Positions 2,270 through 30,627 of a stretch of 64,000 bases of DNA are shown here, piece by piece. Source of the DNA: Gammaproteobacteria bacterium (lineage in GTDB: Bacteria; Pseudomonadota; Gammaproteobacteria; Steroidobacterales; Steroidobacteraceae); contig JAXDQI010000256.1 of NCBI GenBank assembly GCA_034667965.1, positions 6,958 through 70,957 on the forward strand, in the 5' to 3' direction. The position numbers and the translations under genes are program-made. How positions within the stretch are numbered: the stretch's first letter is position 1; each line of letters opens with the position of its first letter. The notes under the pieces were generated by a model. It made no database searches, was not told the origin of the DNA, and saw nothing but the letters and a program-made list of their open reading frames with translations.

Positions 2270-2279
2270 GAGAGCGGCG

Positions 2280-3935
2280 ATGCGCGCTATGAATACTAAG
2301 TCACTGCTCGGGCAGGTCCTGCAAGGCGCAACGGTCGCCCTCGGGTCGATGCTCGCACTGTCCGCGCATGCGGCGGCACCCGGCATCACCGGGGCCTCCA
2401 ACGCGCCGGTCTTCAACCTGAACGCGGCGGCGATGCGCGTCACGCAGCCAAACGGCAAGAGCTTGTACTCTTGGGGCTACGGGTGCACCTCGACCACGGG
2501 CAATAGTTTCGCGCCCGCCTCGGTGCGGGGCGCCAACTGTCCGGCGGCGCAGCTGCCGGGACCCACCTTGATCGTCACCGAAGGCGACACGGTGACCGTC
2601 AATCTCACCAACGGACTGCCTGCAGCCGCGGGCGGCACGTCGATTCTCTTCCCCGGCTTCCAAGTGGCGACGTCGGGCGGCACCACGGGATTGCTGACTC
2701 AAGAGGCGCCGAGCCTGGCCTCGTGCGTCACCGGGGGCTGCAATACCGTGAAATACACCTTCACCGCCTCGACGCCGGGTACGCACTCCTACTACAGCGG
2801 AACCCAGGGCGACCTGCAGGTTGAGATGGGGATGTACGGCGCGCTCATCGTCCTGCCGAAAACCGTGCCGAGCAATTGCATTACCGGTGTCCTCGCCGCG
2901 AACAACGTCATTGCCGAAACGACCTCCGGGGAAAGCGATTTCCGTTTGGCGAAAGCGGCCTACGACCACCCGTCCACCTGCTACGACCGGGAATATCTGT
3001 TCCAGTTCTCCGAGATGGACGACAACATCCATAGTCAAGCCGAGGCGCAGGTTCTGGCCGATCAGCTGAAGGCCGTCGGTTCGCAATGCACGAACCCCAC
3101 GGGTTGCCTGGTGGTTGCCACCGAGCCTTATCTGCCGGACTACTACTTGGTCAACGGTCGTTCGATGCCGGACGACATGGACCCGAACTACATACCCATG
3201 TACCCGAATCAGCCGTACAACGGCAATCCGCACATGCATCCCGGCGAGCAGACGCTGGTGCGCATCATCGGCCAGGGCCGATGGCAGCATCCCTTCCACG
3301 AACACGCCAATCACGTGCGAGTGCTGGCCCGCGACGGCAATCTGTTGCTGAGCCCGCCGACGAATCCCAGCGATCCGACCAGCACGCTGCCCGCGGGTCC
3401 GCTCATGTTCACCACCACCACCACGCCGGGCATGACCATGGACGGCATCTTCTATTGGACGGGCCGGGGCCTCAATTGGGACGTGTTCGGGCATGACCCG
3501 TCGCTGGTCGATTCCAACACGAAGAAGCCCTTCGTTTGCGTCCCCGACACCAACGGCTATTTCACCAGCGACCCGACCGCGCCGAACTACTACGAGTGGT
3601 GCGGCGATCACAACAAGGCGCTCGAGAAGCATCCCTTCGGGCAGGTGGCCGCCGGCGGGCCGGTGACCTTGCCGGATCCGAACATCGTCGCGAACGGCAA
3701 CTGGTACGGCGGCAGCCCATACCTCGGAGGCGAAGCCACCGTTCGCGCGGTGGGCGGGACGCCAATCCCTCCCGCCGGCACCGTCGCCAATTCGCCTTCC
3801 GGCGAGGCGGGCTTCGCTTACATGTGGCACTCGCATAACGAGCGCGAGATCACGACGTCCAACGTTTTTCCGGGCGGGATGATGATGATGATGCTCGTCG
3901 ATCCACGTAGTTTCGCGATCGACGAAACGAATTGA
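2280..3935 (+). CDS. Secreted multicopper oxidase paralogue 2 (two HxH pairs, no type-1 Cys)
   Basis: 551-aa ORF starting 11 nt after MCO1, with a signal peptide (...GSMLALSAHAAAPG). The N-terminal cupredoxin-like domain lacks HxH (TSILFPGF, GTHSYYSG at the usual motif positions). The C-terminal domain has WQHPFHEH (nt 3282-3305), WHSH (nt 3825-3836) and then GGMMMMM. Confidence 0.85.
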   Translation: MRAMNTKSLLGQVLQGATVALGSMLALSAHAAAPGITGASNAPVFNLNAAAMRVTQPNGKSLYSWGYGCTSTTGNSFAPASVRGANCPAAQLPGPTLIVTEGDTVTVNLTNGLPAAAGGTSILFPGFQVATSGGTTGLLTQEAPSLASCVTGGCNTVKYTFTASTPGTHSYYSGTQGDLQVEMGMYGALIVLPKTVPSNCITGVLAANNVIAETTSGESDFRLAKAAYDHPSTCYDREYLFQFSEMDDNIHSQAEAQVLADQLKAVGSQCTNPTGCLVVATEPYLPDYYLVNGRSMPDDMDPNYIPMYPNQPYNGNPHMHPGEQTLVRIIGQGRWQHPFHEHANHVRVLARDGNLLLSPPTNPSDPTSTLPAGPLMFTTTTTPGMTMDGIFYWTGRGLNWDVFGHDPSLVDSNTKKPFVCVPDTNGYFTSDPTAPNYYEWCGDHNKALEKHPFGQVAAGGPVTLPDPNIVANGNWYGGSPYLGGEATVRAVGGTPIPPAGTVANSPSGEAGFAYMWHSHNEREITTSNVFPGGMMMMMLVDPRSFAIDETN

Positions 3936-3952
3936 TATTCAGGAGAATCTAG

Positions 3953-6900
3953 ATGCACCTCTTTACATCCAAGACGAGCCGGCTGATCCCTGGATTGGCG
4001 GCTTTGGCTCTCCTGCTGACAGCGAATGCGTCGCAGGCGCAAACGGTCAATCTGACCGCCGCGCCCACCAGCACCACCTTGCCCGACGGGCAAAGTGTGC
4101 CCATGTGGGGATACCATTGCACTGACGCGGGCAGCAATGGCGCGACCTGCGCAGCGGCCAACCCGGCCGTGCAGACGGCCGGAACGGGCTGGTCGCCGAT
4201 CGTGATCACCGTGCCCTATGTGGGCACCGCCACGGCCTCGAGCACCAACCTCACGATCAGCCTCACCAACAACCTGACGTTCGCCGGCGGCAAGATTCCC
4301 ACGTCGCTTACCATCGTCGGTCAGTTGGGCGGCGGCCTCGGCGGCGGCGGCACCACCAGTGTGAGCCCGGTGCATGCCGGTCAGGGAGTTACGTGGCCCG
4401 CCGCGGATCCGACCACGACGTCGACGCCGCCGGCACAGATGCCGCGCGTGCAGTCCTTCGGCACCGAAGTGGCGGTTGGCGCGACGACTGCGCTCACCTG
4501 GAACAAGCTGCGGCCCGGCACCTATTTGATCGAGTCGGGAACACACCCCTCGATTCAAGCCCCCATGGGCCTGTACGGCATTCTGGTCGTCACCACCACC
4601 TCGACCACCCCGGCTCAGGCGTATCCCACGGTCGCGGGTCTGCCCGTCACCGCGCTTGCGGTTTCTCAATATGACGCGGACCTGCCGCTGGTGCTCAGTG
4701 AAATCGATCCGGTGCAGAACGCATCAGTCGCCACCGCGGTCGCCACGACCGGCTTCTTGGAGACGACGGTGTGGAGCGGCCTGCCGGGAAAATGCGGCAA
4801 TCCGCTGAAGGCGGATGGGACCGCCAACGCGAGCTTCAACACCTGCTATCCGCCGGCCGTGAATTACAGCCCGCGCTACTATCTCGTCAACGGCGTGTCG
4901 TTCGATCGGACCAAGATTGCGTCCTCCACGGCCCAGATCCTCCCGCTGCCCGCCACCGTGTCCACGGGCAACGTCATTCTGCGCTTCGCCAACGCGGGTC
5001 TGCGCATGCACATTCCCGCGGTCGTCAACCAGCCGATGACATTGATCGCCGAAGACGGCAACCCGTTGCCCGGTCAGCCGCGCATCCAGAACGAAGTCTT
5101 CATGGCCGCCGGTAAGACGTACGACGTCGAAGTGAAGCCCACGCAGACCTCGGGCGCGTACAGCGCCGCGACGCTCGCGCTCTTCGACCGTCAGTTGAGT
5201 CTCTCCACCAACAATCAGCGCGACGGCGGCATGCAGGCGTACATCGGCGTGGCCGGCGGCGCGACGACGGGTGCCGGGTCCGTCGGGTCCGGCGTGGCCC
5301 TGGGCGGCGTCGCCGCCAAGACTTTCTACTGCGTTTCCGGCACGACGTTGTCCGTGACCGACCCCACCAGCGGATTGTTGGGCGGGACCACCGGTGCGAA
5401 CGGCGTAGCCGCCACTCCGCCCCTCCTGGCCGGCTTGACCATTCAGTCGAACGGTACGTTCACCTATGTTCCGCCGGCCACCGGCGCCTGCGGCGGCAGC
5501 TTCACTTATCTCGTCAACAATTCGCAGTCGGTCACGTCGACCATCGCGCAGTGCGATGCCACCAGCAGTACCGCGACAGGCTGCACGGTGAGCGGCCAGG
5601 CGACCTTGGTCAACGACACCTTCACCGGCACCAACGCCAAGGTATTGGCCATCAGTCCGCCGGGCGTGCTGCTAAACGACATCAATCCCGACGGCCGTCC
5701 GCTGAGCGTGGATCCCGCTACGGTGCAGTCGAGCGGATTGGTGAGCCTCGCCGTCAGTGCGGACGGATCGTTCACAGCCGTGGCGCCCGCCGCGGGCACG
5801 TATACGTTTACCTATAACGTCACGAATTCCCAGCATACGAAGGGCATCGCGCCTGCGACGGTCACGCTGAACTTCCCCCAGGGCTCGGGGCTGAAGGTCA
5901 AATTGGTTGACCAGAAGCATCAGACGGACCCGACGTGGGACCTCGCCGACGCGACCAAGAAGGGCGATTACCGCTGGATCATCGAAGAGGATCGCACCTT
6001 CTGGATCGATCCGAAGTGTCAGGTCAACAGCGCCACGCGACCGAAGGATTCTTACGGCCGCGCCTGCCCGCCGACACCGGTCGAGGCACTGGGCTACAAC
6101 TTCCACACGGCTTCCATGCCGGTGGTGGCCACCGGCTGCGTCGGCAGCATCTCTTGCGAATCGGGGCAGACGGTTTTGGGCGTGGCCGCGGTTTGCGATG
6201 TGGGTGACGGCACCTGCCGCACTGACGCTACGCAGCGCACTGAGTTGACGCCGGATCAGGTGCACCTCGATCCCAACAAGCACTACTTCATCTCCATCAT
6301 GCCGGCCGACGGCATCAACCCGACCGTCAACGGTGCGGGCGGCCCGGTGCAGGTCAATGCGACTTGCGATCCGACCACGACGAACTGCGCCATGCGCCAG
6401 TTCGACGCCACGAAGGATTGTCCGACCCCCGCCGACTTTGCGCCGGGTAGCGGAGCGTGTGGCCACAACATGGGCGGCACGCAGATCGGACCGCAATTCC
6501 TGGCGGACGGCACGCCGACCCCCCCGTCGGTCACCATCTCGCTGGTGGAGACGCCGCTGCCTTCGGCGAAGATCGCGGTGTTGGTGTACGAGGATGACTA
6601 TCCTCTCAATGGCGAGAACGATGCCGGCGGCGGCGTCGACATACTGGCGCCGAATGAAGCCGGTCTCGGCGGCTTCCAGATCGAACTTCTGGACCAAGCC
6701 GGCGCCCTCGGCGACTCCACCGGGCAGATCACCTACGACATGTTCAACATGCCGGTGAGCAATGCGCTGGCCGGCACGCCCGATCCCAACAATCACATGC
6801 AGGACGCGTGCCCGCTCACCTCGAATCCCGACAACCTCGTCGGCAGAATCATCACCTGCCCAACCTACGAAGCCGACGGCACGACCCTGTCGCCGCTCGC

Positions 6901-9900
6901 CGGACAGGCGGTGATCGCGAATCTATACCCCGGCCTCTACGAGCCCCAAGCGTTCCCGGATGCCGACCGCATCGCTCGCGGTGAGGAATGGCTGCAGACC
7001 AACACACTCGACGGCGGCAAACCGCACGAGGCCTTCATCCGACCGGGCGAACCCGCCTACTTCCAGGAATTTGGCCCGGGTGGTTTCCACGTCCAGATCG
7101 GCTTCGCCAACCCGAAGATCATCAACGATCGGCGTCACAACTTGGCCGGCACCGGCATCTGCGATGCGGTCGCCACCGGCGGCGGCGGTTTGGCGTGCAA
7201 ATCGAGCATTTCCGGCCAGGTGCACGGCAACCATATGAGCCGTACGCCGGACGAACGCACCTATGACACGGGCAGCTACGACGCGTTTGCGTTCTCGGCC
7301 TGCTACGTGTCCGTCGGAGTTCCCGATGAACAGGACTTCGCCTTCGCGAAGTGCGATGCCGAGGGCAACTACTCGATGACGGGTCTGCCTAATGGCACGT
7401 ACAAACTGGCGGTGTTCGACCAGTGGAACGACATCATGCTCGACGGCCTCATCACCAGTGTGGTCGTCAACGGCAACACCGTCGTCAATCCGACAGCGAC
7501 CCAGTGGCGCACCAATATCTATACGCGCACTTATCTCGACTTGAACGGCAACGGCATCCCGGATCGTACGTGCGATGCCAATGGCAACTGCACCGATCTT
7601 GAACCCGGCGCCCCGTTGCTTCCCATACAGGTCCGTTATCGCGACGGCAGCATCGGCTTCAAGAACAACACCGACTTGAATGGTTACGCCACGTACAACG
7701 AGGTGTTCCCCTTCATGAACTGGCTGGTGGTCGAACCCGATCAGACCCGTTACAAGCCCACCGGCGAACACGTGGTCTATGACGCCGGCGGTCCGGACGA
7801 TTGCACCACGGGGGCGGCCAAGTGCTCCAACACCGCTGCGCACCTGGCGGGCACTCAGGAATTGGTTTCCCTGCCGTTGGACCTGCGTGTGCCGGGCGCC
7901 GTGTATTGCACGGATGCCGACTGCAGCGACCCCAACGAGTCGATTCTGCTGGGCGCATACAACACCAAGACGGTCGACACCAGCAAGAATCACAACATCA
8001 CCGCCGGGCTCTCCAGCGGCCGCATCGACCCGCCGTGGCATTCCGAAGGCTGGCAGGGCCTGCTGGGCCAGCACAGCTTCATCGACTTCGGCATGAAGCC
8101 CTTCGCTGCGCATGAGAACGGCGGAATCCAGGGTCTGGTCGTGTACTACTCGACCCGCCCCTTCGACGACCCGTCGCTCGACGTGCAGCTGGTATGGGAA
8201 CCGGGCGTGCCGAACGTGCAGATCAATCTGTACCAGGAAGGCACCGCGCCGGACGGTACGACGACGCTGACGCTGGTGGACACGACTCAGACCACGAGCT
8301 GGGACAAGTGGGCCCAGGGTTTCCAAACCGACGGTCACGGTAATCTGCGTAAGCTCGCCGACGGCAGCTACGTGCCCAACATGAACTGCCCGGGCCAGGA
8401 TCCGACCAGCGGCTTCTTTGCGACCCTGCAGGGCAGCAAGATGTGGCTGGACACGGCGGACTCCACCGGCAACAAGAAGCAGCTGGCCTACAACTCGCAA
8501 TTCAAATGCTATGACGGTTGGTCCCAGTTGAACCAGATCGTACCCGCACCGTACGACGGCAAGTACACGTTCCCGAGCACCGTCGAACTCGATCCGGTCA
8601 CCGGCCGTCCCGCAGGCTTAGGTTCGCTCAACGGCATCGCTACACCGTTGATCGGCACCAACTGCAACATCTGTGTCGCCAATCCCGACGACGGCACTCC
8701 GATGCTGCCCGCCGGCAAGTATGTGGTCGAGGCGGTCATGCCCACCGGCTTCGAGATCGTCAAGGAAGAAGACAAGAACATCCTCATGGGCGACATCTAC
8801 ATTGCGCCCGTCTCGCAGCAGTTCGCGGGTCTGGGCAACGTCTTCATCCTGCCCGACCAGGCGGCGGTCAACGCGTACTACAATGCGAACAATCCGCTCA
8901 ATTCGACCACCAACTTAGGCGTGTTGAACCCGCGCGAGGATTTTGCGAGCACGGATCAGATGTGGCCCTGCGTCGGTAAGACGCGCATCGTGCCGGATAC
9001 CATGAGCCTGTTCCCCACCGTCGGCCAGACGGCACCGTTCGCCGGCGCCTCGCGGCCGCTGTGCGACCGCAAGGAAGTTTCCCTGACCGATCAGACGGGA
9101 GTGAGCGCGCGGTTCTACGCGTTCACCAAGAACCATATCGCCGGCCACTTCGTCGGCGGCATGACCAACGACATGGCCTCGGAGTTCGACCCGTTCTCGC
9201 CGCAATTCGGTGAGAAGTTCGGTGTCCCGAACCTTCCCATCCGCATGCGCGACTTCATGGGCGACGAAGTGACCCGGGTGTACGGCGACCAGTGGGGCGC
9301 CTACAACGGACTTTACTTCTCGAGCTGGGAAGTCAATCCGCCGAACCCCACCGGCTATGCGCCGCAGATGTCGGTGGCTTGCATGAACGATCCGGGTCCG
9401 ATCCTGGATGCCGATCCGACGTCGCCCACGCATGGGCAGATGATCACCGACCCGGCGTACAACCCGGCGTACAGCAACTTCTGCTACGAGACGCCGTTCA
9501 TGCCGGGCTTCACCGCCTACATGGATACGCCGGTCACTCCGACGCAGGCCTTCGCGGACCACTACAATCTGCCGGACGCGGAATATCCCGACGGTACGCC
9601 GGTCATCAAGCGCGCCGACTTCACGGGCAACGGCTTCGGCGCGGGCGGCGCCGGCCCCTGGGCGCCCGGTACTGCCGGTATCGGCAGCATCACGGTCACC
9701 AACACGGGCAGCTACACCGCGGTTCCCACCGTCGGCTTCAACGGCGGCGGCGGCAGCGGTGCCGCGGCCAGCCCGCTCATGAGCATCGGTCAGCTGAATC
9801 TGGTCAGCGCCAGCGGCTCGTACACCAACATCGCGACACCGACTGCCACCTTCTCGGCGCCGCCGTGCACCATCAACGGCACCACCTGCGTACGGGCCGT

Positions 9901-12900
9901 CGGCACCGTGCGGATGTCGTCGAATACTCTGGGCAACGCGACGCGCCGCGTCACGGGCATCACTCTGGCGGGCGGCAATAACACGCCCGGCGTCGGCTAC
10001 ACCACGCCGCCCACGGTGACCTTCAGCACCGGACCCGCCAAAGCGACCACAACTCTGGGCGTGAGCAGTGTCACGGTGACCGCGCCGGGCAGCGGCTACA
10101 CCAGCGTGCCCAACGTGACATTCACCGCCGGTGCCAGCCTTGCGACGGCCACCGCCTCCCTGGGCGGCCCCAGCACGACGCTGCCGCTGGTGCTCACGGC
10201 CTTCGGCGATCGCCAGGTCCAGAATCCGCAATTCGCGGGTCCGTCCGCGATCACTGCGCCTTACAACCAGAAGACCGTCACCCGGCACTATGGCTTCGGC
10301 ACGCAGTGCGCGGCCATCAGCACCGGCTGTGCTGCGATCTCGAGCGTCACCGTCGCAGGTCAGCCGGCGACGATCACCGGCTGGTCGGACACGCAGATCA
10401 CGATTACCGTCCCGGCTCTGCCGCTGTGCTCGGTACAGCAGCGCAGCCTGGTGGCGAACGTGGCGAGCCCGTCGCCGGCCGGTTGCGGTGAAGTAGTGAT
10501 CACTGCGGGCAACGGCAAGCAGTCGATCGACGGCATCACCGTCACCGTGGGCGGCAACGCCACCTACGTGACCACGGCAAGCCAGACCTCCATGACGTGG
10601 GGCGAGATAGACAAGAACCCGTTGCAGACGGCGGTCGACAACGCGAAGCCCGGCGATCTCCTCATCATCGAGGCGGGTGCGTATCGCGAAAATCTGCTCA
10701 TGTGGAAGCCGGTACGCCTGCAGGGTGTCGGCGCCGGTTCCGTCACCATCAATGGAGACGCACAGCCTGCCGGCAAGATGGACTCCTGGCGCCGTCGCGT
10801 GAGCTGTCTGTTCGGTCTCACCATCCAGGGTGTGCCCAACAACGGCAATGCCGCGTATGACCCGGACAACCAGTACACTTGCCCCGCGGATCAGTACTTC
10901 CGCTCCGATCGGCTTCCCTTCGAGGGCTTCGTCGGCTGGGATGCCTCGAGCAACGGCAACCTGGCGCAGCTTCTGCAGGAACCGTCGCTGATGGGCGCCT
11001 ATGAAGGGGCGGGCATCACGGTGATTGGCCGCGGCGTGAATCAGCGAGGTTCCGGAAACACGGACCTGTGGGGTGTAGCGGGCGGCGCGGGAACCTTCCC
11101 GGACGGCAGCCGGTACGTGAGCCTGGCCGATTGCAGGCCGCCGGCCAGCACCGGCAGTACGGCGACCAGAAACATCAACGACTACGGCACCAGCAACTTC
11201 CTTTGCAACCCGTCGGCCATCGACGGCGTGAGCATCCTGAACAGTTCGCAGGGCGGCGGCGGTATCTACCTGCATGGTTGGAACCACAACATTCAGATCG
11301 CCAACACCCGCATCTCCGCGAACGCGGGAACCTTGTCGGGCGCGATCAATCTCGGCAGCGGTGAGACGCCGCCGGCGTTCACCGTCGACAACACGATCTG
11401 CGGCAACACGGGTGCGAACCCCACGCCGCTGTGTCCGCCGAGTGTGCCGAATGCGCAATTGCCCAATGTGCCGGCGACGTTGTTGAACGGGGAGATCCCA
11501 TTCCAGTTCAACACCAACGTGCACATTCATCACAACCAGATCCTGGACAACGCCTCGATCGGTGATGCGCTGTTCTCCGGCTCGCCGGCCGGTGCGGGTG
11601 GCGTGACCATCAGTGCGGGTTCGGACAACTACGAGCTGGACCACAACTGGATCGCGGCCAACCTGACCTCGAGCGACGGCGGCGGTGTGGCGCAAATGGG
11701 CGTGAGCTTCAATGGCAAGATTCACAACAACTTCGTGTTGTTCAATCAGGCCAATAATCCGACGCTCCCCGTCGACGGCGGCGGCATCATCATCATGGGC
11801 GCTCAGGAAGATCGCACCCTGCCGAGCGGTCAGGAATGCGGCGGCACCACCGACCTCGACTGCCCGCCGGGCATCGGCGACGGCACGGGTCCGGGTCTCG
11901 TGATCGATTCGAACCTGATTCTCGGCAACAGCGCCGAGGACGGCAGCGGCGGCGGCCTGCGCCTGCGGCAGACGAATGGTACCGAGGTCGCGGCCTTCCT
12001 CAAGAGCCCGCAGAACTGGTACGGCATCACCGTGACCAACAACATCATCGCGAACAACGTCGCGGGATGGGATGGCGGCGGCGTGTCCTTGCAGGATTCG
12101 TTCAAGACCGTGTTCACCAACAACACCGTGGCATCCAACGACACCACCGCGTCCGCGGGTGTGCTGTTCAAGACGCTGGGTGCGATCAGTGCCGCTTCGC
12201 CGCCTCCGGGATGCTTGCCGACTCCGGATCCGACGCAGCCGCAGAACCCGGCCTGCTTGCTGACGAATGGACCGCACATTCCGCAGCCGGCCGGTTTGGT
12301 GACCATGCAAAACACGCCGAACATGATGTCGCAGCTGCCGAGCGGCGTGGTCTGCCCGGCGGGCTTCGGCTACGGCACGACCAATCCCAACGGCACGGAA
12401 TCGAATCTGACCAACGGCCGTTGCGTGCTCGTCAGCCTGCCGCAGATCAACAATGATCTGTTCTGGCAGAACCGGGCGTTCCACGTCGAGATCGTCGACG
12501 CGAACGGCAATACGATCGCTTCGGGCAACTCGCCGCCCACGGGGACCGGCTTGAAATCAAATCAGAACCTCGTGGCGCTGCTGCCCGAGTTCACGCAGAG
12601 CTACACGGGTCAGTGCGTCACGCCGCCGGCAAGCCAAGAGTTGTATTGGGACGTCGGTGTGCGATGGGACCTGCTGCCGAACGGCCAAGGTCAAGCGCTG
12701 GTGTTCAACGCCGCAACGGTGGGCGCGGGATCCTACACGCCGGCCAACGGCGGCAGCGGGGTGTCTGCGAACCTCAATGACGCGGGTCCGATCGCGCTCT
12801 CGGCCTCCTATTCCATCTTCAGCGACGCGCTGAATATGGGAAATGTGAAGCCGGGATCCATGGGCAACATGGCGCCTTCCAAGACGCCGGTGATCGGCCA

Positions 12901-14152
12901 GTATTGCAACGGTGCACGCATACCGCCCGAGCAATGCGCCGCCGGCCAGGGTGCGAACGACCCCGGCATGTGCAAGGGCTACTTCACGCCGGCCGGCCAG
13001 TCGGAAACCGTCGGTGTCGCTCCGGTGTTCCAGTTCAACGGCATCGCGGCCAGCGCGACGGTGGACGAGGGCAATAACTGGATCAACATGACCTACGGCC
13101 CGTTGACTCTGAGCCGTCCGCCGTCTGCCGGTGCCGGTTCGACGCCGTCGGCCGAGCCGACGGTGGCCAGCGCCGCAGTGGGCATCGCACAGGGTGCTTA
13201 CTCGATCGCTTCCGATTCGGCCGCGGTCGGTGCCGGATATCCGACGGCGCCGGGTACGCCCAACCACGACTTCTACGGCCAGCCGCGGTCGACGTCGGGC
13301 GTGTCCATCGGTGCAGTGGAGTTTGCAGTGCCGCCGCCCACGCTGACGGCGATCACGCCGGCTGCGGGGGTGCAGGGGACGACCGTGGCGGTGACGCTCA
13401 CCGGCACCAATTTCACGGCCGGTAGCGTCGTTTTGGTCTCGGGCAACGGCATCAATCAGTTCGGTCTGGTTGAGGTGAGCGCAACGCAGCTCACGACGAA
13501 TATCCAGATCTCGGGGAGTGCAACCCTGGGTGCGCGGAACGTGACGGTATCGACTTCCGGCGGCGTTACCGCGCCGGTGACCTTCACCATCGTCGCCAAG
13601 CCGCCGGCGCCGACGCTGACGTCGATCTCGCCAAACTCCGGGACGCGCGGCTCGACCGTGACGGTTACCTTGACCGGCACGAACTTCTCGGCGGCCGGAT
13701 TGGCGGTGAACGTGAGCGGTTCAGGCGTGACGCCGATCAATGTCACCTATGTGAGCCCCACGCAGGTGAAGGCGGACTTCGTGATCGGTCCAAACGCGAA
13801 CACCAACAATAGAAACGTCACGGTCACCACGTCGGGGGGTACGAGCGGCTCAAGGACCTTTACGGTCTCGAACCCGCCGCGGCCGACGCTGGCGTCGATT
13901 GCTCCGACGGTGGGAACGCATGGCACGAACGTGACGGTGACCCTGACCGGCACCAACTTCACGTCGACGGGGACGTCCATCAATGTCACGGGCACCGGTG
14001 TGGTGGCGACCGTCACGTCCGTGACGCCGACGCAGATCGTCGCGACCTTCGCCATCACTTCGGGTGCGCTACACACTGCAAGGGCGGTCAATGTGACGAC
14101 GCCCGGAGGAACGAATGTGCAAAGCCAGAACCGCACGTTTACCGTCAACTGA
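3953..14152 (+). CDS. Giant (3399 aa) secreted multidomain protein: Cu-less MCO-like head, cadherin-like/VCBS-type repeats, Cna-B/SdrD-like modules, right-handed beta-helix, C-terminal IPT/TIG repeats
   Basis: Uninterrupted ORF with a signal peptide (...LLLTANASQAQ). The first ~430 aa align in pattern with MCO domains 1 and 2 (WGY..., GTYLIESGTHPSIQAPMGLYGILVV, YYLVNGVSFD...) but contain no HxH/HCH motif. Further modules are 'VLLNDINPDGRPLSV', 'YSMTGLPNGTYKLAVFD', GSGYTSVPNVTF-type repeats, beta-helix repeats (NNIIANNVAGWDGGGVSLQD, DHNWIAANLTSSDGGGV) and 3 x ~90-aa IPT/TIG repeats at the end. Confidence 0.9.
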   Translation: MHLFTSKTSRLIPGLAALALLLTANASQAQTVNLTAAPTSTTLPDGQSVPMWGYHCTDAGSNGATCAAANPAVQTAGTGWSPIVITVPYVGTATASSTNLTISLTNNLTFAGGKIPTSLTIVGQLGGGLGGGGTTSVSPVHAGQGVTWPAADPTTTSTPPAQMPRVQSFGTEVAVGATTALTWNKLRPGTYLIESGTHPSIQAPMGLYGILVVTTTSTTPAQAYPTVAGLPVTALAVSQYDADLPLVLSEIDPVQNASVATAVATTGFLETTVWSGLPGKCGNPLKADGTANASFNTCYPPAVNYSPRYYLVNGVSFDRTKIASSTAQILPLPATVSTGNVILRFANAGLRMHIPAVVNQPMTLIAEDGNPLPGQPRIQNEVFMAAGKTYDVEVKPTQTSGAYSAATLALFDRQLSLSTNNQRDGGMQAYIGVAGGATTGAGSVGSGVALGGVAAKTFYCVSGTTLSVTDPTSGLLGGTTGANGVAATPPLLAGLTIQSNGTFTYVPPATGACGGSFTYLVNNSQSVTSTIAQCDATSSTATGCTVSGQATLVNDTFTGTNAKVLAISPPGVLLNDINPDGRPLSVDPATVQSSGLVSLAVSADGSFTAVAPAAGTYTFTYNVTNSQHTKGIAPATVTLNFPQGSGLKVKLVDQKHQTDPTWDLADATKKGDYRWIIEEDRTFWIDPKCQVNSATRPKDSYGRACPPTPVEALGYNFHTASMPVVATGCVGSISCESGQTVLGVAAVCDVGDGTCRTDATQRTELTPDQVHLDPNKHYFISIMPADGINPTVNGAGGPVQVNATCDPTTTNCAMRQFDATKDCPTPADFAPGSGACGHNMGGTQIGPQFLADGTPTPPSVTISLVETPLPSAKIAVLVYEDDYPLNGENDAGGGVDILAPNEAGLGGFQIELLDQAGALGDSTGQITYDMFNMPVSNALAGTPDPNNHMQDACPLTSNPDNLVGRIITCPTYEADGTTLSPLAGQAVIANLYPGLYEPQAFPDADRIARGEEWLQTNTLDGGKPHEAFIRPGEPAYFQEFGPGGFHVQIGFANPKIINDRRHNLAGTGICDAVATGGGGLACKSSISGQVHGNHMSRTPDERTYDTGSYDAFAFSACYVSVGVPDEQDFAFAKCDAEGNYSMTGLPNGTYKLAVFDQWNDIMLDGLITSVVVNGNTVVNPTATQWRTNIYTRTYLDLNGNGIPDRTCDANGNCTDLEPGAPLLPIQVRYRDGSIGFKNNTDLNGYATYNEVFPFMNWLVVEPDQTRYKPTGEHVVYDAGGPDDCTTGAAKCSNTAAHLAGTQELVSLPLDLRVPGAVYCTDADCSDPNESILLGAYNTKTVDTSKNHNITAGLSSGRIDPPWHSEGWQGLLGQHSFIDFGMKPFAAHENGGIQGLVVYYSTRPFDDPSLDVQLVWEPGVPNVQINLYQEGTAPDGTTTLTLVDTTQTTSWDKWAQGFQTDGHGNLRKLADGSYVPNMNCPGQDPTSGFFATLQGSKMWLDTADSTGNKKQLAYNSQFKCYDGWSQLNQIVPAPYDGKYTFPSTVELDPVTGRPAGLGSLNGIATPLIGTNCNICVANPDDGTPMLPAGKYVVEAVMPTGFEIVKEEDKNILMGDIYIAPVSQQFAGLGNVFILPDQAAVNAYYNANNPLNSTTNLGVLNPREDFASTDQMWPCVGKTRIVPDTMSLFPTVGQTAPFAGASRPLCDRKEVSLTDQTGVSARFYAFTKNHIAGHFVGGMTNDMASEFDPFSPQFGEKFGVPNLPIRMRDFMGDEVTRVYGDQWGAYNGLYFSSWEVNPPNPTGYAPQMSVACMNDPGPILDADPTSPTHGQMITDPAYNPAYSNFCYETPFMPGFTAYMDTPVTPTQAFADHYNLPDAEYPDGTPVIKRADFTGNGFGAGGAGPWAPGTAGIGSITVTNTGSYTAVPTVGFNGGGGSGAAASPLMSIGQLNLVSASGSYTNIATPTATFSAPPCTINGTTCVRAVGTVRMSSNTLGNATRRVTGITLAGGNNTPGVGYTTPPTVTFSTGPAKATTTLGVSSVTVTAPGSGYTSVPNVTFTAGASLATATASLGGPSTTLPLVLTAFGDRQVQNPQFAGPSAITAPYNQKTVTRHYGFGTQCAAISTGCAAISSVTVAGQPATITGWSDTQITITVPALPLCSVQQRSLVANVASPSPAGCGEVVITAGNGKQSIDGITVTVGGNATYVTTASQTSMTWGEIDKNPLQTAVDNAKPGDLLIIEAGAYRENLLMWKPVRLQGVGAGSVTINGDAQPAGKMDSWRRRVSCLFGLTIQGVPNNGNAAYDPDNQYTCPADQYFRSDRLPFEGFVGWDASSNGNLAQLLQEPSLMGAYEGAGITVIGRGVNQRGSGNTDLWGVAGGAGTFPDGSRYVSLADCRPPASTGSTATRNINDYGTSNFLCNPSAIDGVSILNSSQGGGGIYLHGWNHNIQIANTRISANAGTLSGAINLGSGETPPAFTVDNTICGNTGANPTPLCPPSVPNAQLPNVPATLLNGEIPFQFNTNVHIHHNQILDNASIGDALFSGSPAGAGGVTISAGSDNYELDHNWIAANLTSSDGGGVAQMGVSFNGKIHNNFVLFNQANNPTLPVDGGGIIIMGAQEDRTLPSGQECGGTTDLDCPPGIGDGTGPGLVIDSNLILGNSAEDGSGGGLRLRQTNGTEVAAFLKSPQNWYGITVTNNIIANNVAGWDGGGVSLQDSFKTVFTNNTVASNDTTASAGVLFKTLGAISAASPPPGCLPTPDPTQPQNPACLLTNGPHIPQPAGLVTMQNTPNMMSQLPSGVVCPAGFGYGTTNPNGTESNLTNGRCVLVSLPQINNDLFWQNRAFHVEIVDANGNTIASGNSPPTGTGLKSNQNLVALLPEFTQSYTGQCVTPPASQELYWDVGVRWDLLPNGQGQALVFNAATVGAGSYTPANGGSGVSANLNDAGPIALSASYSIFSDALNMGNVKPGSMGNMAPSKTPVIGQYCNGARIPPEQCAAGQGANDPGMCKGYFTPAGQSETVGVAPVFQFNGIAASATVDEGNNWINMTYGPLTLSRPPSAGAGSTPSAEPTVASAAVGIAQGAYSIASDSAAVGAGYPTAPGTPNHDFYGQPRSTSGVSIGAVEFAVPPPTLTAITPAAGVQGTTVAVTLTGTNFTAGSVVLVSGNGINQFGLVEVSATQLTTNIQISGSATLGARNVTVSTSGGVTAPVTFTIVAKPPAPTLTSISPNSGTRGSTVTVTLTGTNFSAAGLAVNVSGSGVTPINVTYVSPTQVKADFVIGPNANTNNRNVTVTTSGGTSGSRTFTVSNPPRPTLASIAPTVGTHGTNVTVTLTGTNFTSTGTSINVTGTGVVATVTSVTPTQIVATFAITSGALHTARAVNVTTPGGTNVQSQNRTFTVN
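13331..14149 (+). repeat. Three tandem ~270-273 bp coding repeats (IPT/TIG-like Ig domains) at the 3' end of the giant gene
   Basis: Repeat starts at ~13331 (PPPTLTAITPAAGVQGTTVAVTLTGTNFTAG), ~13601 (PPAPTLTSISPNSGTRGSTVTVTLTGTNFSAAG) and ~13874 (PPRPTLASIAPTVGTHGTNVTVTLTGTNFTSTG). Confidence 0.85.

Positions 14153-23985: not shown

Positions 23986-23989
<4 letters not shown>
22805..23989 (+). CDS. gspF: GspF/PilC-family inner-membrane platform protein
   Basis: 394 aa with a GTG start. It has the duplicated T2SSF pattern (two cytoplasmic helical domains, each followed by TM segments), e.g. IFSQELVSLLDAGLSLVEAIEAL and LYRTVGMLLRSGMPAVTAM. Confidence 0.85.
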
Positions 23990-25735
<1,746 letters not shown>

Positions 25736-25755
<20 letters not shown>

Positions 25756-26551
25756 TGAAGTGGGAATTTATCTCGCCCAGCGGCGAGTGTGCCTGATCCG
25801 CATGCGGCGCGGCATTCGCCCGACATTGGCGGGCGAGGTGGACCACGCGGATCCGAACGCCGCAGTCGGCTGGGAGGGTGCGCTTGCGCTGCTGGAACGG
25901 CAGTTGACGGAAGGTGCATGGTCCGACGCGCGTGTCCGCGTGGTGCTTGCCGATCACTGGGTGCGTTATGCCGTGGTGCCGTGGTCCGACGCATTGAGTT
26001 CCTCGGGCGAGCGGCTGGCGCACGCCCGCGAATTGATGGCCGGGATCTTCGGCGCTGAAATGAGTGATTGGACCGTGTCCCTGTCCGAGGCGCCGCCCGG
26101 CTCATCGCGACTGGCGAGCGCCATGCCGACCGCCTTGCTGCATGAGCTGCGCGAAGCCGCGGTGCGGCATGGTCAGAAGCTCGTGTCCGTGCAGCCGCAG
26201 CTCATCGCTGCGTACAACACCTGGCGCCACGCTCTTCCCGCCGCCACCGCCGCCTGGTTCGTCACCGTCGAAGAGGGTTCCCTTGCGGCGCTGCGCATGT
26301 GCGGCGACGGGATCGACCGGGTGCATGCGGTCCGTATCGGGCTCGATTGGGCGCGTGAACTGAAGCGGCTGCAGACCTTCGGCCGCCTTGCCAGCGCGAG
26401 TCCCAGCGACGGGCGGGTGTACGTCGATCTACCGGCCGCCCTGCGCTCTTTGCGCCCGGAGGCCTCGGCGGATTTGGAATGGCTCGATGAACCGAATCCT
26501 CCGCTGACCACTTTGCATCAGCTCGAACATCTGCGCAGAAGGGCCGCATGA
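25736..26551 (+). CDS. PilM/GspL/MshI-like cytoplasmic assembly protein (hypothetical)
   Basis: 271 aa, overlapping the gspE stop. No TM segment. The position and size are like PilM/MshI. Assignment rests on context and weak pattern only. Confidence 0.45.
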
Positions 26552-27081
26552 GAAACGCGATTCAACTGGATTTCGCCGGGGCGCGCCCCGGCTTATCGCT
26601 GGCGGGCGGATTGCTGCTGGCGGTGGGGGTGGTCGCGGCCGGGGCCGTGCTGCTCGAGTACCGCGCAATCGGCCAGCATCGCGCCGGTCTCGAGCTCAGA
26701 CTGGCCGCAGTGGCCCGCGCGGATGCGCTCGCGGCCCCGCCCATCGAATCGCCAGCGGATAGCCGTGTTGCCGTGAGCGCGCAGCAGGCGGCCACCGACC
26801 TCGCGACGCCATGGACCTTGTTGTTGTCGGAACTCGAACAGGCGAGCAAGGAGACGCAGGGACAGGTCGCACTGCTCGGCGTCGAGCCGGATCACGCCAA
26901 GCACAACGTGCGCGTCAGTGCCGAGGCTCGCACACTGAGTTTGGCGCTGGCCTATGTGGAGCGTCTGCAAGCGAGCCGGTCACTGAGCTATCCGATGCTC
27001 GACCGCCATGAGATCCGCGCCGAAGATGCGCAGCATCCGGTGCGTTTCGAATTGACCGGCGCATGGAGAGACATACCGTGA
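26548..27081 (+). CDS. PilN/MshJ-like bitopic assembly protein (hypothetical)
   Basis: 177 aa with a 4-nt overlap with the previous ORF. It has a single N-terminal TM (LSLAGGLLLAVGVVAAGAVLL) followed by a periplasmic domain. Confidence 0.45.
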   Translation: MRNAIQLDFAGARPGLSLAGGLLLAVGVVAAGAVLLEYRAIGQHRAGLELRLAAVARADALAAPPIESPADSRVAVSAQQAATDLATPWTLLLSELEQASKETQGQVALLGVEPDHAKHNVRVSAEARTLSLALAYVERLQASRSLSYPMLDRHEIRAEDAQHPVRFELTGAWRDIP

Positions 27082-27737
27082 ACGCCCCCGAGGATAACCG
27101 CAGCGTGACGCGGTCCCCCATGCCGGGCGCCGCGCAGCCGGGCGTCGCGCGGCCGCCGGCCGCGCTTGCGGTCACATCGCGAACGGCATTGCAGGCGCGT
27201 GCCGAACAGATGCTGGTGCGCGCCGTGCCGCAGGTGAAGTATCAACTCATGCGGGTGGGTCCCGCCGGGTTGACGGGGATCGGAGTGCTGCTCGCGGCCG
27301 CCGTCGCGGCGATAGTCCTGCTGCTCCCGGCGCACCAATCAGTGCTCGCGCTGCGGGACGAGCTGACCAAGGCGGGCCATGCGATGCCGTCCACGGTGAA
27401 GCCGGAGCAGAGTCCGCAACAGTTCGCGGCGACGCTGCCCACCCGCGAGCAGATTCCGGCGTTGCTGGGAGTGGTGCTCGCACAGGCGACCGACGCGGGC
27501 ATCGTCCTGGAACAGGGGCGCTACACTTTCAGCCCGGCGACTTCCAACCGGCTTGCCCGTTATACCTTCGAATTTCCGGTCAAAGCGGACTACGGCAACA
27601 TCCGCAGCTTCATCAACAAGTCGCTGGCGGCGATTCCGGCGCTGGGATTGGACAAGTTGCACGTCGAACGCAAGACCGTCGGTGACACGGCGGTCAGCGC
27701 CGACGTCGGCTTCGTCATTTATCTGCGAGGTGCATAG
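27063..27737 (+). CDS. PilO/GspM-like bitopic assembly protein (hypothetical)
   Basis: 224 aa with one TM (LTGIGVLLAAAVAAIVLLL), a coiled segment, and a C-terminal ferredoxin-like pattern (YTFEFPVKADYGNIRSFINKSLAAIPAL) as in PilO/GspM. Confidence 0.5.
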   Translation: MERHTVNAPEDNRSVTRSPMPGAAQPGVARPPAALAVTSRTALQARAEQMLVRAVPQVKYQLMRVGPAGLTGIGVLLAAAVAAIVLLLPAHQSVLALRDELTKAGHAMPSTVKPEQSPQQFAATLPTREQIPALLGVVLAQATDAGIVLEQGRYTFSPATSNRLARYTFEFPVKADYGNIRSFINKSLAAIPALGLDKLHVERKTVGDTAVSADVGFVIYLRGA

Positions 27738-28276
27738 TGTTGGGCAAGGTCACGCTGCGCACCAAGGCTCTCATCGGCATCGCCTTGGCCTGCGCCGGAT
27801 ACATCGTATTCATGCCGGACGCGTCTCAGACCATCGAGCCCACGCATGGCACGGGGTCGCCCGGCGCCGCCTCGCCGACGCGCACCATCCATCCCGCGCC
27901 GGCCGGCCACAAATCCCCCGTGATGAATGCCGCCTTGCGCCAGTCCGATCGCATCGCCAGGGACACGGAGGCGGGATCCCTGTTCTCCGCGCAATCCTGG
28001 TACGTGGCGCCGCCTGCGCCGCCGCCCGTGCCGGTGGTCTATCAACCGCCGCCCGCGCCGACTGCGCCGCCGCTGCCGTTTGCATTCATGGGCAGCTATC
28101 GCACCGACGGCGGCGGCGCGATCTACTACCTCACCGCGGGCGATCGGGTTTACGACGTCAAGGTCGGCGACACGCTCGACAACACCTACAGCGTGGACGG
28201 AGTCAAATCCGGGCACCTGCTGCTGACCTATATGCCTCTCAAAATTCAGCAATCTCTTGCTGTGGGCGATGAATAA
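27737..28276 (+). CDS. PilP/GspC-HR-like protein (hypothetical)
   Basis: 179 aa with an N-terminal TM, a Pro-rich linker (PPAPPPVPVVYQPPPAPTAPPLP) and a C-terminal beta-rich module (IYYLTAGDRVYDVKVGDTLDNTYSVDGVKSGHLLLTY). It lies directly upstream of the secretin. Confidence 0.45.
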   Translation: MLGKVTLRTKALIGIALACAGYIVFMPDASQTIEPTHGTGSPGAASPTRTIHPAPAGHKSPVMNAALRQSDRIARDTEAGSLFSAQSWYVAPPAPPPVPVVYQPPPAPTAPPLPFAFMGSYRTDGGGAIYYLTAGDRVYDVKVGDTLDNTYSVDGVKSGHLLLTYMPLKIQQSLAVGDE

Positions 28277-30627
28277 TGATGAACAGATCCCTTAGAAATC
28301 TCCTTGGAACGCTGCTCTGCACCGCGGTGCTGCTGGGCTGCGCAGCCACGCAGCTGCATCGCGACGGCCTCGCGGAGGTGGAGCGCGGCAATTACGAAAC
28401 CGGGGTGTCCAAGCTCGCCGATGCGGTCGCTCAAGATCCCAACAACATGATGTACAAGCTGGATCTGACGGCGCGGCGCGAGGCCTCGATCCAGAAATTG
28501 ATTTCCGCCGGCGACGCGCTGCGCGGCGCCGGGCAGTGGGATGCCGCGGTGTCCACCTATCGTCGAGTGCTGGTGCTTGAAGCGGGCAATCAGCCGGCCT
28601 TGCGCGGTATCGAGGGCGTCGACGCCGATCGGCGCCACGCCGGCATGGTGGGCGAAGCCTTCAAGGCTTTCGAACGCAAAGACTACGATGCGGCCGATGC
28701 GATTCTGCGATCCGTGCTTAATGAGGACGCCGGCTTCGGACCCGCGGTGGCGCTTGCCGCCAAGATCAATGTGGCGCGCGGACCCATCAATGTGGTGCCT
28801 CGGCTGAAGGCGCGCAATAACGCGAAGGTCACCCTGCAGTTCCGCGATGCGCCCACGAAAATGGTGTTCGAGGTGTTGGCGCGGCAGACGGGCATCAATT
28901 TCGTGCTCGACAAGGATGTGAAGAGCGACAGCAAGACCACGATCTTCGTCCAGGAAGTGCCGATCGAGGAGCCCATCGACCTGGTGCTCGATCAGAACGC
29001 GCTGGCGCGGCAGATTCTCTCGTCGAACATGGTGCTCATCTATCCGAATACCCCGGCCAAGCAAAAGGACTACGAGGAACAGATCGTCCACACGTTCTAT
29101 TTGACCAATGCCGTCCCCAAGGACGTGGAGAGCATGTTGAAGTCCATGCTCGGCGCCAAGACCCTGTTCGTCGATGAGCGCACCAGCGTCGTCGTGATGC
29201 GCGATACCCCGGATGCGGTGCGCATGGCCGAGAAACTGGTGGCCTCGATCGACGTGCCGGAGCCTGAGGTCCTGATCGAAGTGGAAGTGCTCGAGATCGC
29301 TCGCAGCAAGCTGCTCAATCTCGGAATCACCCCTCCCGGCTCCTTCACGGCCAGCGCCACGTCGGTCCTTAAAGGAGCGACCGCCGGCGCAACGAGCGGG
29401 GCCTCGAATCTCGTTCTGTCCGACCTGAGCCACCAGAATGCCAATACCATCAGTGTCTCGTCGGTGAGCCTCACCGCGAACGCCCTGCAGACGGTGGGCA
29501 ACACCAACACGCTGGCGAGTCCGCGCATCCGCGCGCGCAACAAGGAAAAAGCGAAAATCCTGATAGGCAGCCGTGTTCCGGTCATCACCAGCAGCACGGC
29601 GCTTCTGTCCAATGGCACGGCGAACAGCAGCAGCGTTCAGTACCTCGACGTGGGGTTGACGCTGGAGGTCCAGCCGACCGTTTATCTGGACGGCGACGTG
29701 TCCATCAAAGTAGGGCTGGAGGTCAGCTCCATCACCAACACGGTGGTCGTCGGAGGCACACAGGCGTATACGATCGGTACGCGCAACGCCAACACCCTGT
29801 TGCGGCTGAAGGACGGGGAGACCCAGGTATTGGCCGGCCTGATCCAGGACTCGGACACGCGCAACGCCGCCGGAATCCCGGGATTGAGCCAAATTCCGGT
29901 CGTGGGACGCTTGTTCGGTTCGCACAATTCCGACCGGGAGAAAAACGAGATCGTGCTGTCGATCACGCCGCACATCATCCGCACGCAGGCGCGGCCCGCT
30001 TCCGATGCGACGGAATTCTGGTACGGCACCGAAACCCGCTCGCGGAGCACGCCATTTGGCGGTGGCGGCGGCTTCGACAGCGGCGGTTCGTCGGCGGCCT
30101 CCGCCGGCGCAGTCGGCGGCGGTGCAGGACTGCCGACGGTCGGACCTCGGCCTTCGGTATCGCAACCCGTTGCGCCCGCGGCGCCCGCACCCTTGCCGTC
30201 CCCGGCCGCACCGGCAGGCCCGCCGCCCCATCCCACGGTGACGGTCGACGGACCCAGTGAAACCTCGGTGGGTCAGGAATTCGACGTCACCGTGCGCGTT
30301 GCCACGGACGTGGGTATAAGCCGTCTGCGTGGCCAGCTCCGATTCGACTCCAGTGCGCTGCAACTCATGAGTGCGACCGCGGGGGACCTCGTGCCCTCCA
30401 GCGCGGGCAGTCCGACCGTCGATGCGAAAAGTGGAGGTGCGCAGTTGGACGTTACGGCGTCTGACGATCCCATCCAGGGCGAAGGCAGCCTGATGCTGCT
30501 GCGATTCAAGGCGCTCACGGCCCGCCCGGCGAGTCCGATCTCCGCGCAGGTGTCCGCGATGGGACCCGCGGGCACGGCGACGGCGAACGCGGCATCGCAG
30601 CCGCTGAGCGTCGCAATCAAACCGTGA
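28276..30627 (+). CDS. gspD: Secretin (GspD/PilQ/MshL family) lipoprotein fused to an N-terminal TPR region and a C-terminal cohesin-like domain
   Basis: 783 aa with a lipobox (AVLLGCAA) and TPR-like helices (aa ~30-170). It has an STN/N0-like segment (VTLQFRDAPTKMVFEVLARQTGINFVLDKDV) and a secretin core (GETQVLAGLIQD...IPGLSQIPVVGRLFG). A Gly/Ala/Pro linker leads to a cohesin-like tail (VGQEFDVTVRVATDVGISRLRGQLRFDSSALQLMS...GSLMLLRFKAL). Confidence 0.85.
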   Translation: MMNRSLRNLLGTLLCTAVLLGCAATQLHRDGLAEVERGNYETGVSKLADAVAQDPNNMMYKLDLTARREASIQKLISAGDALRGAGQWDAAVSTYRRVLVLEAGNQPALRGIEGVDADRRHAGMVGEAFKAFERKDYDAADAILRSVLNEDAGFGPAVALAAKINVARGPINVVPRLKARNNAKVTLQFRDAPTKMVFEVLARQTGINFVLDKDVKSDSKTTIFVQEVPIEEPIDLVLDQNALARQILSSNMVLIYPNTPAKQKDYEEQIVHTFYLTNAVPKDVESMLKSMLGAKTLFVDERTSVVVMRDTPDAVRMAEKLVASIDVPEPEVLIEVEVLEIARSKLLNLGITPPGSFTASATSVLKGATAGATSGASNLVLSDLSHQNANTISVSSVSLTANALQTVGNTNTLASPRIRARNKEKAKILIGSRVPVITSSTALLSNGTANSSSVQYLDVGLTLEVQPTVYLDGDVSIKVGLEVSSITNTVVVGGTQAYTIGTRNANTLLRLKDGETQVLAGLIQDSDTRNAAGIPGLSQIPVVGRLFGSHNSDREKNEIVLSITPHIIRTQARPASDATEFWYGTETRSRSTPFGGGGGFDSGGSSAASAGAVGGGAGLPTVGPRPSVSQPVAPAAPAPLPSPAAPAGPPPHPTVTVDGPSETSVGQEFDVTVRVATDVGISRLRGQLRFDSSALQLMSATAGDLVPSSAGSPTVDAKSGGAQLDVTASDDPIQGEGSLMLLRFKALTARPASPISAQVSAMGPAGTATANAASQPLSVAIKP

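Follow-up and report, generated by a model that had tools for sequence, protein, structure and literature searches.

What is a cohesin doing at the end of an outer-membrane secretin? The question is raised by a gene in a stretch of 64,000 nucleotides from a member of the Steroidobacteraceae (the window: positions 6,958 to 70,957 of contig JAXDQI010000256.1, assembly GCA_034667965.1). Its product (P0001) combines a lipoprotein-type N-terminus bearing a tetratricopeptide repeat (TPR)-like module with a secretin core and a cohesin held on a flexible leash. The open reading frame (ORF), lipobox, TPR-like helices, STN/N0 region, core, linker and tail had all been recognized in a first-pass annotation made from the DNA sequence, with correct coordinates and motifs.

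The C-terminal tail is a true cohesin, as indicated by three independent lines of evidence, namely sequence, profile comparison with the Protein Data Bank (PDB), and predicted fold, and the cohesin-type pattern noticed initially is thereby confirmed. Residues 654-755 match the Pfam Cohesin family (PF00963) with 31.7 bits (E 2e-7; gathering cut-off 24.1), and in a six-frame search of the 5.2-Mb genome the domain, scoring 35.3 bits, is the only cohesin encountered. An exhaustive phmmer search with residues 640-783 against 1.84 billion representatives returned 270 matches, of which the nearest (38-85% identity) all lie at the C-terminal end of secretins and the remote ones (20-30% identity) are multi-cohesin scaffoldins with 3-9 matched stretches each. 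When a profile of 63 tails is compared with PDB sequences, almost exclusively cohesins are retrieved, among them the ScaB dyad (3l8q, 6e-13), CipC (2vn5 and 1g1k), and NagJ of Clostridium perfringens (2jh2). The AlphaFold2 (AF2) model of the tail, with a predicted local distance difference test (pLDDT) score of 92.8 and a pTM of 0.85, is all-β and forms the nine-stranded jelly-roll β-sandwich of cohesins. The top 30 or so matches of this model in a Foldseek search of the PDB are all cohesins, including 1g1k (TM-score 0.75, probability 1.00) and the non-cellulosomal cohesin 2xdh of Archaeoglobus fulgidus (TM-score 0.72). A role in protein docking is therefore the natural reading of the tail.

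Among 106 full-length relatives, identities range from 75 to 99% in the tail, from 65 to 97% in the N-domain, from 86 to 99% in the core, and from 60 to 91% in the linker. Since the tail is conserved like the N-domain and well above the linker, its conservation argues for purifying selection. The tripartite design is retained in relatives of less than 50% identity (P0140, P0141, P0146, and P0265).

The match of the core to PF00263 spans the full model (positions 1-169, E 7.5e-43), and matches to PilQ and GspD sequences in the PDB reach 1.8e-29, PilQ being the best match in both NCBIfam and the PDB. None of the NCBIfam cut-offs compared is reached, neither for GspD (TIGR02517, 164.9 bits, cut-off 351), nor for PilQ (TIGR02515, 174.6 bits, cut-off 284), nor for MshL (TIGR02519, 115.5 bits, cut-off 250). 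The STN match at residues 207-257 (23.3 bits) stays below the Pfam cut-off, and in the orthologue encoded at the metagenomic locus L095 both STN (39 bits) and N0 (27 bits) exceed theirs. In 70 residues of the linker region there are 15 P, 14 G, 12 A, and 9 S.

At the N-terminus, the lipobox LLGC occupies residues 19-22. Its Cys22 is invariant in 41/41 orthologues, whose identities span 28-78%, and the next residue is Ala in at least 90% of these sequences, which is strong sequence evidence for a lipoprotein and for the lipidation that is predicted here. Residues 78-168 give sub-threshold matches to TPR_19 (22.1 bits, cut-off 25) and TPR_14 (20.6 bits, cut-off 23.5), and in the L095 orthologue TPR_19 scores 25.1 bits. 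The AF2 model of the N-domain (pLDDT 92) is all-helical, with long helices (~27-33 aa) alternating with short ones (~14 aa). Foldseek aligns it to TPR proteins only, with a TM-score of at most 0.37 and a root-mean-square deviation of about 12 Å, and no PilF-, PilW-, BamD- or MshN-type protein occurs among its top 50 results. Judging from this model, the accurate label for residues ~25-168 is a TPR-like helical hairpin array, and the comparison does not show homology to MshN or a pilotin. Of the initial idea that the TPR part replaces a separate MshN or pilotin, a functional half seems to survive: because Cys22 is invariant, it is plausible that the lipidated TPR-like N-terminus serves as an in-built pilotin substitute, and it would do so with a fold that matches none of the PilF, PilW or MshN type.

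The secretin gene belongs to an operon of 11 genes in the order gspG, gspF, gspE, four small genes, the secretin gene, and three pseudopilin genes (Table 1), and this module is kept in 84/84 related loci examined. Against the GspG equivalog model, whose cut-off is 88.85 bits, the major pseudopilin scores 173 bits. The four small genes of the window gave no match in a Pfam search, their orthologues show weak PilO and PilN matches, and the ATPase of the operon shows a weak match to the MshEN domain. Because the GspG cut-off is passed, those for MshL, PilQ, and GspD are failed, and the operon is conserved, the locus is best classified, at the sequence level, as a distinct type II-secretion-like member of the type IV filament superfamily. 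The framing as a locus for the mannose-sensitive haemagglutinin (MSHA) pilus, with which the first-pass annotation had made its comparison, is not supported. The protein at the PilP position (window 27737-28276) contains a Pro-rich central stretch, APPAPPPVPVVYQPPPAPTAPPLP, and the stop codon of its gene overlaps the start codon of the secretin gene in an ATGA-type coupling at 28273-28279. A locus of Pseudoduganella flava (L062) has a secretin without adjacent gspF and gspE.

Table 1. Coordinates of the secretin gene, the predicted parts of its product, and associated genes in the window.
Feature	Position	Strand	Basis
Tripartite secretin gene	28276..30627	+	ORF, 783 aa (P0001); Pfam domains
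Signal peptide and lipobox LLGC (Cys22)	28276..28341	+	Sequence; conservation of Cys22
TPR-like helical-hairpin domain, residues ~25-168	28348..28779	+	Sub-threshold Pfam matches, AF2, Foldseek
N0/STN domain, residues ~187-257	28834..29046	+	STN 23.3 bits, below cut-off
Secretin_N (N3), residues 271-330	29086..29265	+	Pfam PF03958, 47.1 bits
Secretin core, residues 403-569	29482..29982	+	Pfam PF00263, E 7.5e-43
Gly/Ala/Pro-rich flexible linker, residues ~592-652	30049..30231	+	Composition; lowest conservation
C-terminal cohesin domain, residues ~654-783	30235..30624	+	Pfam, PDB profile search, AF2 and Foldseek
gspG	22316-22798	+	Pfam, NCBIfam
gspF	22805-23989	+	Pfam, NCBIfam
gspE	23986-25755	+	Pfam, NCBIfam
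Four small genes in PilM/N/O/P-like positions, directly upstream of the secretin gene	25736..28276	+	Conserved synteny
Three pseudopilin genes downstream of the secretin gene	30624-31106, 31096-31509, 31513-32040	+	N_methyl/GspG-like matches; conserved synteny
Candidate cargo: two multicopper-oxidase-like genes (MCO1, MCO2) and the gene for a 3399-aa giant protein	434..14152	+	Pfam

In a survey employing one genome per species and the single protein P0001 as query, relatives of the secretin were found in at least 308 species genomes. This large family of soil and freshwater Pseudomonadota includes Steroidobacterales (nearest to the window), Rhodanobacter, Acidiferrobacterales, Ferrovum, Rhodocyclaceae, Georgfuchsia, Propionivibrio, Rhizobacter, Ramlibacter, Oxalobacteraceae, and Anaeromyxobacter, and has cultured members in Rhizobacter sp. 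SG703 and P. flava (CGMCC 1.10685). The tail together with the whole architecture is present in at least 257 metagenomic proteins, which their source annotations call only ‘general secretion pathway protein D’ or ‘secretin N-terminal domain-containing protein’. Clusters of 50-520 members listed in the ESM Atlas with Secretin, TPR_2, and Cohesin, mostly from Acidobacteriota and Nitrospirota, may point to a still broader class, a lead taken from annotation and not from alignments.

Among 74 complete orthologues, the cohesin is present in 63 and missing from 11. The latter still have a Pro/Ala-rich extension of 90-110 aa, and their lineages keep the lipobox, the TPR-like domain, the linker, and the whole apparatus. 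On a maximum likelihood tree of N-domain and core, the loss of the tail is accounted for by two events, one in a Duganella/Massilia clade (100/100 support) within the tail-bearing Betaproteobacteria and the other on the single branch of the Acidiferrobacterales. Since only these two losses are needed on the tree, the cohesin tail is ancestral; it is kept in both deep clades.

Some placements on the tree deserve mention. The secretins of Anaeromyxobacter metagenome-assembled genomes (MAGs; L048 and L052) nest within the gammaproteobacterial clade, with an orthologue of MCO2 situated 11 kb away in G018, and the secretin of a ‘Sphingomonadaceae’ MAG (L085) nests within Duganella; both cases could be due to horizontal transfer or to mis-binning. 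In the long-read MFD MAGs L022, L056, and L057 the secretin frame breaks in or near the GC-rich Gly/Pro linker, and in L022 an Arg-rich out-of-frame stretch stands in place of the tail. Frameshifts introduced in assembly, rather than genuine truncation, are the most likely cause of these breaks.

Where would the tail be located? Alignments with PDB secretins stop at query residues 568-577. At this point PilQ chains come to their extreme C-terminus, and the GspD-type chain 6hcg (657 aa) has reached residue ~602, where the S-domain starts. In type II secretion systems (T2SS), pilotins bind to the S-domain; they are outer-membrane lipoproteins that Lol delivers and that act on the periplasmic side (PMC3542185). 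Since the tail starts where the S-domain of a T2SS secretin would, leash and cohesin are, by analogy, more likely to emerge in the periplasm, close to the outer membrane's inner leaflet, than to be displayed at the surface.

The reading that we prefer, and to which as a whole we would give about an even chance, is that of a self-piloting secretin ring whose tethered cohesins act as sockets docking a partner at the channel, most probably on the periplasmic side. The secretin would be the outer-membrane channel of a dedicated, non-canonical type II-secretion-like machine with a GspG-type pseudopilus, a GspE/F motor, and PilMNOP-like alignment proteins replacing GspC/L/M. Being a lipoprotein, it would target itself, its TPR-like N-domain taking over from a separate pilotin or TPR accessory protein, and the leash of ~60 residues with the cohesin would occupy the position of the pilotin-binding S-domain. 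In an assembled 12-15-mer, this arrangement would produce a ring of tethered docking sockets, most probably on the periplasmic side just under the outer membrane, which would capture a partner, either cargo or accessory, and hold it at the channel. In the source genome, which is devoid of a canonical dockerin, the partner may be an accessory protein or a component of the split multicopper-oxidase (MCO)/giant cargo. The data show the architecture, that the tail is a cohesin, the conservation of the family, and the dockerin neighbour of the sister lineage described below, whereas the lipid anchor, the position in the periplasm, the binding, and the nature of the partner in this genome are what we infer.

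A candidate partner exists in a sister lineage, at L089 and L095, two metagenomic loci of the same operon type with secretins that are 67% identical. The first gene of these operons codes for an S8 protease ending in a canonical dockerin with two F-hand segments (DLNNDIKVN-VVDLNLFKAAY and DFNGDGRIN-TLDLSIFKLLY), which is preceded by TSP3 repeats. At L095, Dockerin_1 (PF00404, cut-off 22.9 bits) scores 35.6 bits on the protease and Cohesin 46 bits on the 781-aa secretin, which also shows TPR_19, N0, STN, Secretin_N, and Secretin. Such a neighbour fits cargo docking, and in this lineage the partner is probably the dockerin-tagged exoenzyme at the head of the operon. A plug-and-socket pairing thus seems well supported locally, in one lineage, and does not appear as a general rule detectable by the Pfam model. 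A scan of metagenomes for relatives of L089 yielded only one new locus, and a homologue search yielded three proteins. Of the original proposal that the tail captures a cargo at the outer membrane, the capture itself gains from the tail being a true cohesin and from the dockerin-tagged S8 neighbour, and a surface topology has become the less likely part.

Several observations weigh against the docking reading that we prefer. The first-pass annotation had noted that no canonical dockerin is seen in the cluster, and this holds genome-wide, as the source genome (93.6% complete) encodes no PF00404 dockerin above the cut-off. Canonical dockerins are equally absent from five related tail-bearing gammaproteobacterial genomes (0/5); of five tail-bearing betaproteobacterial genomes only that of P. 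flava encodes one, unlinked to the secretin gene, and one of five tail-less genomes carries dockerins as well. The adjacency of dockerin and secretin was encountered in a single lineage, at two loci with 67% identity. An orthologue of MCO2 was not found in eight tail-bearing genomes (G006-G009, G016, G017, G021, and G022), some of which are incomplete MAGs. Moreover, the topology is argued by analogy and the binding is a prediction.

Candidates for a dockerin in the source genome were considered and rejected. The best two sub-threshold matches fall on one loop of BamA and on a small periplasmic protein with an EF-hand pair. The latter, the second-best dockerin-like match of the genome, is an exported protein of ~91 aa (L002, G000:C280:~9160-9440) consisting of an EF-hand pair only (DVNHDGKLTLEE / DVEKKGYLSLEQ). 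The Ca-loop-like ‘DLNGNGIPD’ that had been pointed out in the giant protein is indeed present at residue 1196; it stands alone, with neither a tandem partner nor a Pfam dockerin signal, and was dismissed as a dockerin. In the cultured P. flava, whose secretin carries the cohesin tail, a secreted zinc metalloprotease (L090, G006:C9; HEMGHQ motif) ends in a canonical dockerin (GDVNGDGQVD... / VQDGVIDARDL...). A co-loss of plug and socket cannot be claimed from the S8 proteases beside tail-less Duganella secretins, as these share with the S8 protease of L095 only the generic region around the catalytic Ser.

A further candidate for the cargo is the MCO-MCO-giant cluster of the window, to which the apparatus is directly adjacent in the diverged loci L004 and L006. 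MCO/giant genes lie within 10 kb of the apparatus in 22 of the 63 tail-bearing loci and in none of the 11 tail-less ones, and an MCO2 orthologue is present in the tail-bearing genomes G010, G011, G012, G013, G018, and G020; a genome-wide search found it in none of six tail-less genomes. The survey of tail frequency and of co-occurrence with giant proteins that had been suggested at the outset thus returns a common tail and a link to the MCO/giant genes that seems frequent, not obligatory, and, because only two loss events underlie it, phylogenetically weak. The more specific suggestion that the giant protein is the cargo of the tail is not upheld, as neither this protein nor the genome has a dockerin above the cut-off and tail-bearing secretins occur without an MCO2 orthologue. 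Other tail-bearing loci, from Betaproteobacteria, are flanked by genes for Big_9/fn3 Ig-rich proteins of 1100-1300 aa, and tail-less Duganella/Massilia loci by a dockerin-less S8 subtilase. By BLAST, no module is shared between the betaproteobacterial Ig-rich candidates and the cargo proteins of the window, and in an orthogroup comparison of tail-bearing with tail-less flanks the differences were confounded by phylogeny, and no partner co-varied convincingly with the tail.

Three other explanations, and a bolder version of our own, have to be weighed against these data. If the tail reached the cell surface, the cohesin would retain secreted cargo, such as the giant protein or the MCO complex, at the pore mouth in the manner of an anchoring scaffoldin. 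Cohesins are classically extracellular, a protease retained at the surface would agree with the S8-dockerin neighbour, and linkage of the MCO/giant genes is frequent for tail-bearing apparatuses and never seen for tail-less ones. However, the tail begins at the position of the S-domain, which in solved or characterized secretins engages periplasm-facing lipoproteins (PMC3542185), there is no evident route across the outer membrane for 12-15 tails, the giant protein and the source genome are without a dockerin, and tail-bearing secretins exist in the absence of MCO/giant genes, so that surface display seems quite improbable to us. The same S-domain position would suit an assembly or stabilization module, that is, a cohesin that replaces the S-domain and staples the ring through another subunit, its own TPR-like domain, a lipoprotein or peptidoglycan rather than through cargo. 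That cohesin and lipidated TPR-like domain are both hallmarks of the family, that most tail-bearing genomes searched have no dockerin, and that the tail is not bound to one type of cargo would all agree with such a staple. Nevertheless, two lineages have lost the cohesin and kept lipobox, TPR-like domain, linker, and apparatus; because these natural losses left the apparatus intact, the cohesin is presumably dispensable for assembly. A staple would also have no need of a long flexible leash, and the dockerin-tagged neighbour at L089 and L095 points to an external partner, all of which makes this explanation unlikely.

The tail might finally be a relic, an inherited cohesin whose dockerin partner was lost in the clade of the window and which now has no specific function. 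Canonical dockerins in 0/6 genomes of this clade and two outright losses of the cohesin domain are compatible with this view, yet a tail that is 75-99% identical across more than 100 relatives, like the N-domain and above the linker, and that is retained across both deep clades leaves it little credit. At the other extreme, cohesin and dockerin could constitute an address system, in which the secretin-tethered socket recognizes a plug on the cargo, the S8 dockerin in one lineage and a non-canonical module on the MCO/giant complex here; we consider this a doubtful extension. A docking socket at the channel, most probably periplasmic, remains the reading that we favour.

With regard to the MCO cluster itself, a counterpart in Sideroxydans was reported to be more highly expressed in magnetite cultures (PMC12016527), and Keffer et al. 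(2025) describe the cupredoxin cluster and no secretin. Beside the operon with the S8-dockerin and secretin genes at L095 (13386-18644, minus strand), a 706-aa multihaem cytochrome with 12 c7-type stretches and an MtrC/MtrF-like domain is encoded together with an 851-aa SPOR/TPR protein with a LamB-like C-terminus, neighbours that hint at extracellular electron transfer, as does the MCO cluster in the window. Downstream of a diverged tail-bearing apparatus (L088:13910-19131), seven or eight small paralogues (~110-128 aa) each have a signal peptide and conserved Cys pairs and no Pfam match; they may represent small substrates, forming one family, that this type of apparatus secretes. Upstream at L088 an RHS/YD-shell protein is encoded, and in P. 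flava (L062:471-8304) a SpvB/FG-GAP/TcdB-like protein and a 1599-aa RHS protein with an Ntox47 toxin tip precede the secretin, so that RHS toxins are found beside the apparatus in two diverged loci.

The combination of cohesin and secretin domains is already visible in automatic annotations. In literature searches no paper describing or testing a cohesin-bearing secretin was found, and a preprint on giant genes of Omnitrophota mentions cohesin and secretin only in unrelated contexts. New are the survey of the proteobacterial family, the pattern of an ancestral tail with two losses, the S8-dockerin neighbour, the negative result on canonical dockerins in the clade of the window, and the observation that the tail also occurs without the MCO/giant cargo. 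To our knowledge, the recognition of folded substrates by T2SS is a long-standing open question, and we know of no linear signal for it. A cohesin-bearing secretin with a dockerin-tagged enzyme as neighbour offers a genetically testable hypothesis for the recruitment or retention of substrates, and would extend cohesin-dockerin biology to envelope machines of Gram-negative bacteria. If the address system were real, it would be the first simple modular signal for secretion or retention in a T2SS-type apparatus, and in the source organism an extracellular metal-oxidizing complex would be fixed at the export pore. Furthermore, the fused lipidated TPR-like module would represent a natural example of a pilotin-secretin fusion, for which a pilotin role is plausible only, and the apparatus is linked to an uncharacterized copper-oxidase cluster.

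Compared with known systems, the secretin shares core, N0, and N3 with the T2SS secretins GspD and PulD, which employ a separate pilotin (PulS or AspS), and its operon shares with T2SS the GspG-type pseudopilin and GspE/F; in both cases a functional segment follows directly C-terminal to the core. In contrast to GspD and PulD, linker and cohesin replace the S-domain and the protein is a predicted lipoprotein with a TPR-like domain, and PilMNOP-like genes are situated where T2SS has GspC/L/M. HxcQ of Pseudomonas aeruginosa is a self-piloting lipidated T2SS secretin, or liposecretin. The term liposecretin occurs in PMC3542185. A lipobox on the secretin itself, implying pilotin-independent targeting, is the feature in common, predicted here from the sequence. 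We know of no TPR-like module behind the lipid anchor of HxcQ, and of no cohesin tail on it. PilQ and its TPR lipoprotein pilotins (PilF, PilW or Tgl) represent the same pairing of TPR lipoprotein and secretin that is found here in one chain; however, our secretin has no AMIN domains, PilQ stops at the core without a tail, and the N-domain does not superpose on canonical TPRs (TM-score at most 0.37) or retrieve PilF or PilW. The MSHA system resembles the present one in uniting a secretin (MshL) with a TPR protein (MshN) and in the weak MshEN match of the ATPase, whereas the MshL cut-off is missed (115.5 versus 250 bits), the major pilin is of GspG type, and the MSHA pilin set is lacking. In comparison to known cohesins, the one studied here is a single copy, forms one chain with an outer-membrane channel in a Gram-negative bacterium, and has no dockerin in its source genome. 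With the cohesins of CipC (type I, 1g1k), A. fulgidus (2xdh), and C. perfringens NagJ (2jh2), it has in common the same fold (TM-scores 0.67-0.75), the same Pfam family, and, at L095, a cognate-looking canonical dockerin next door.

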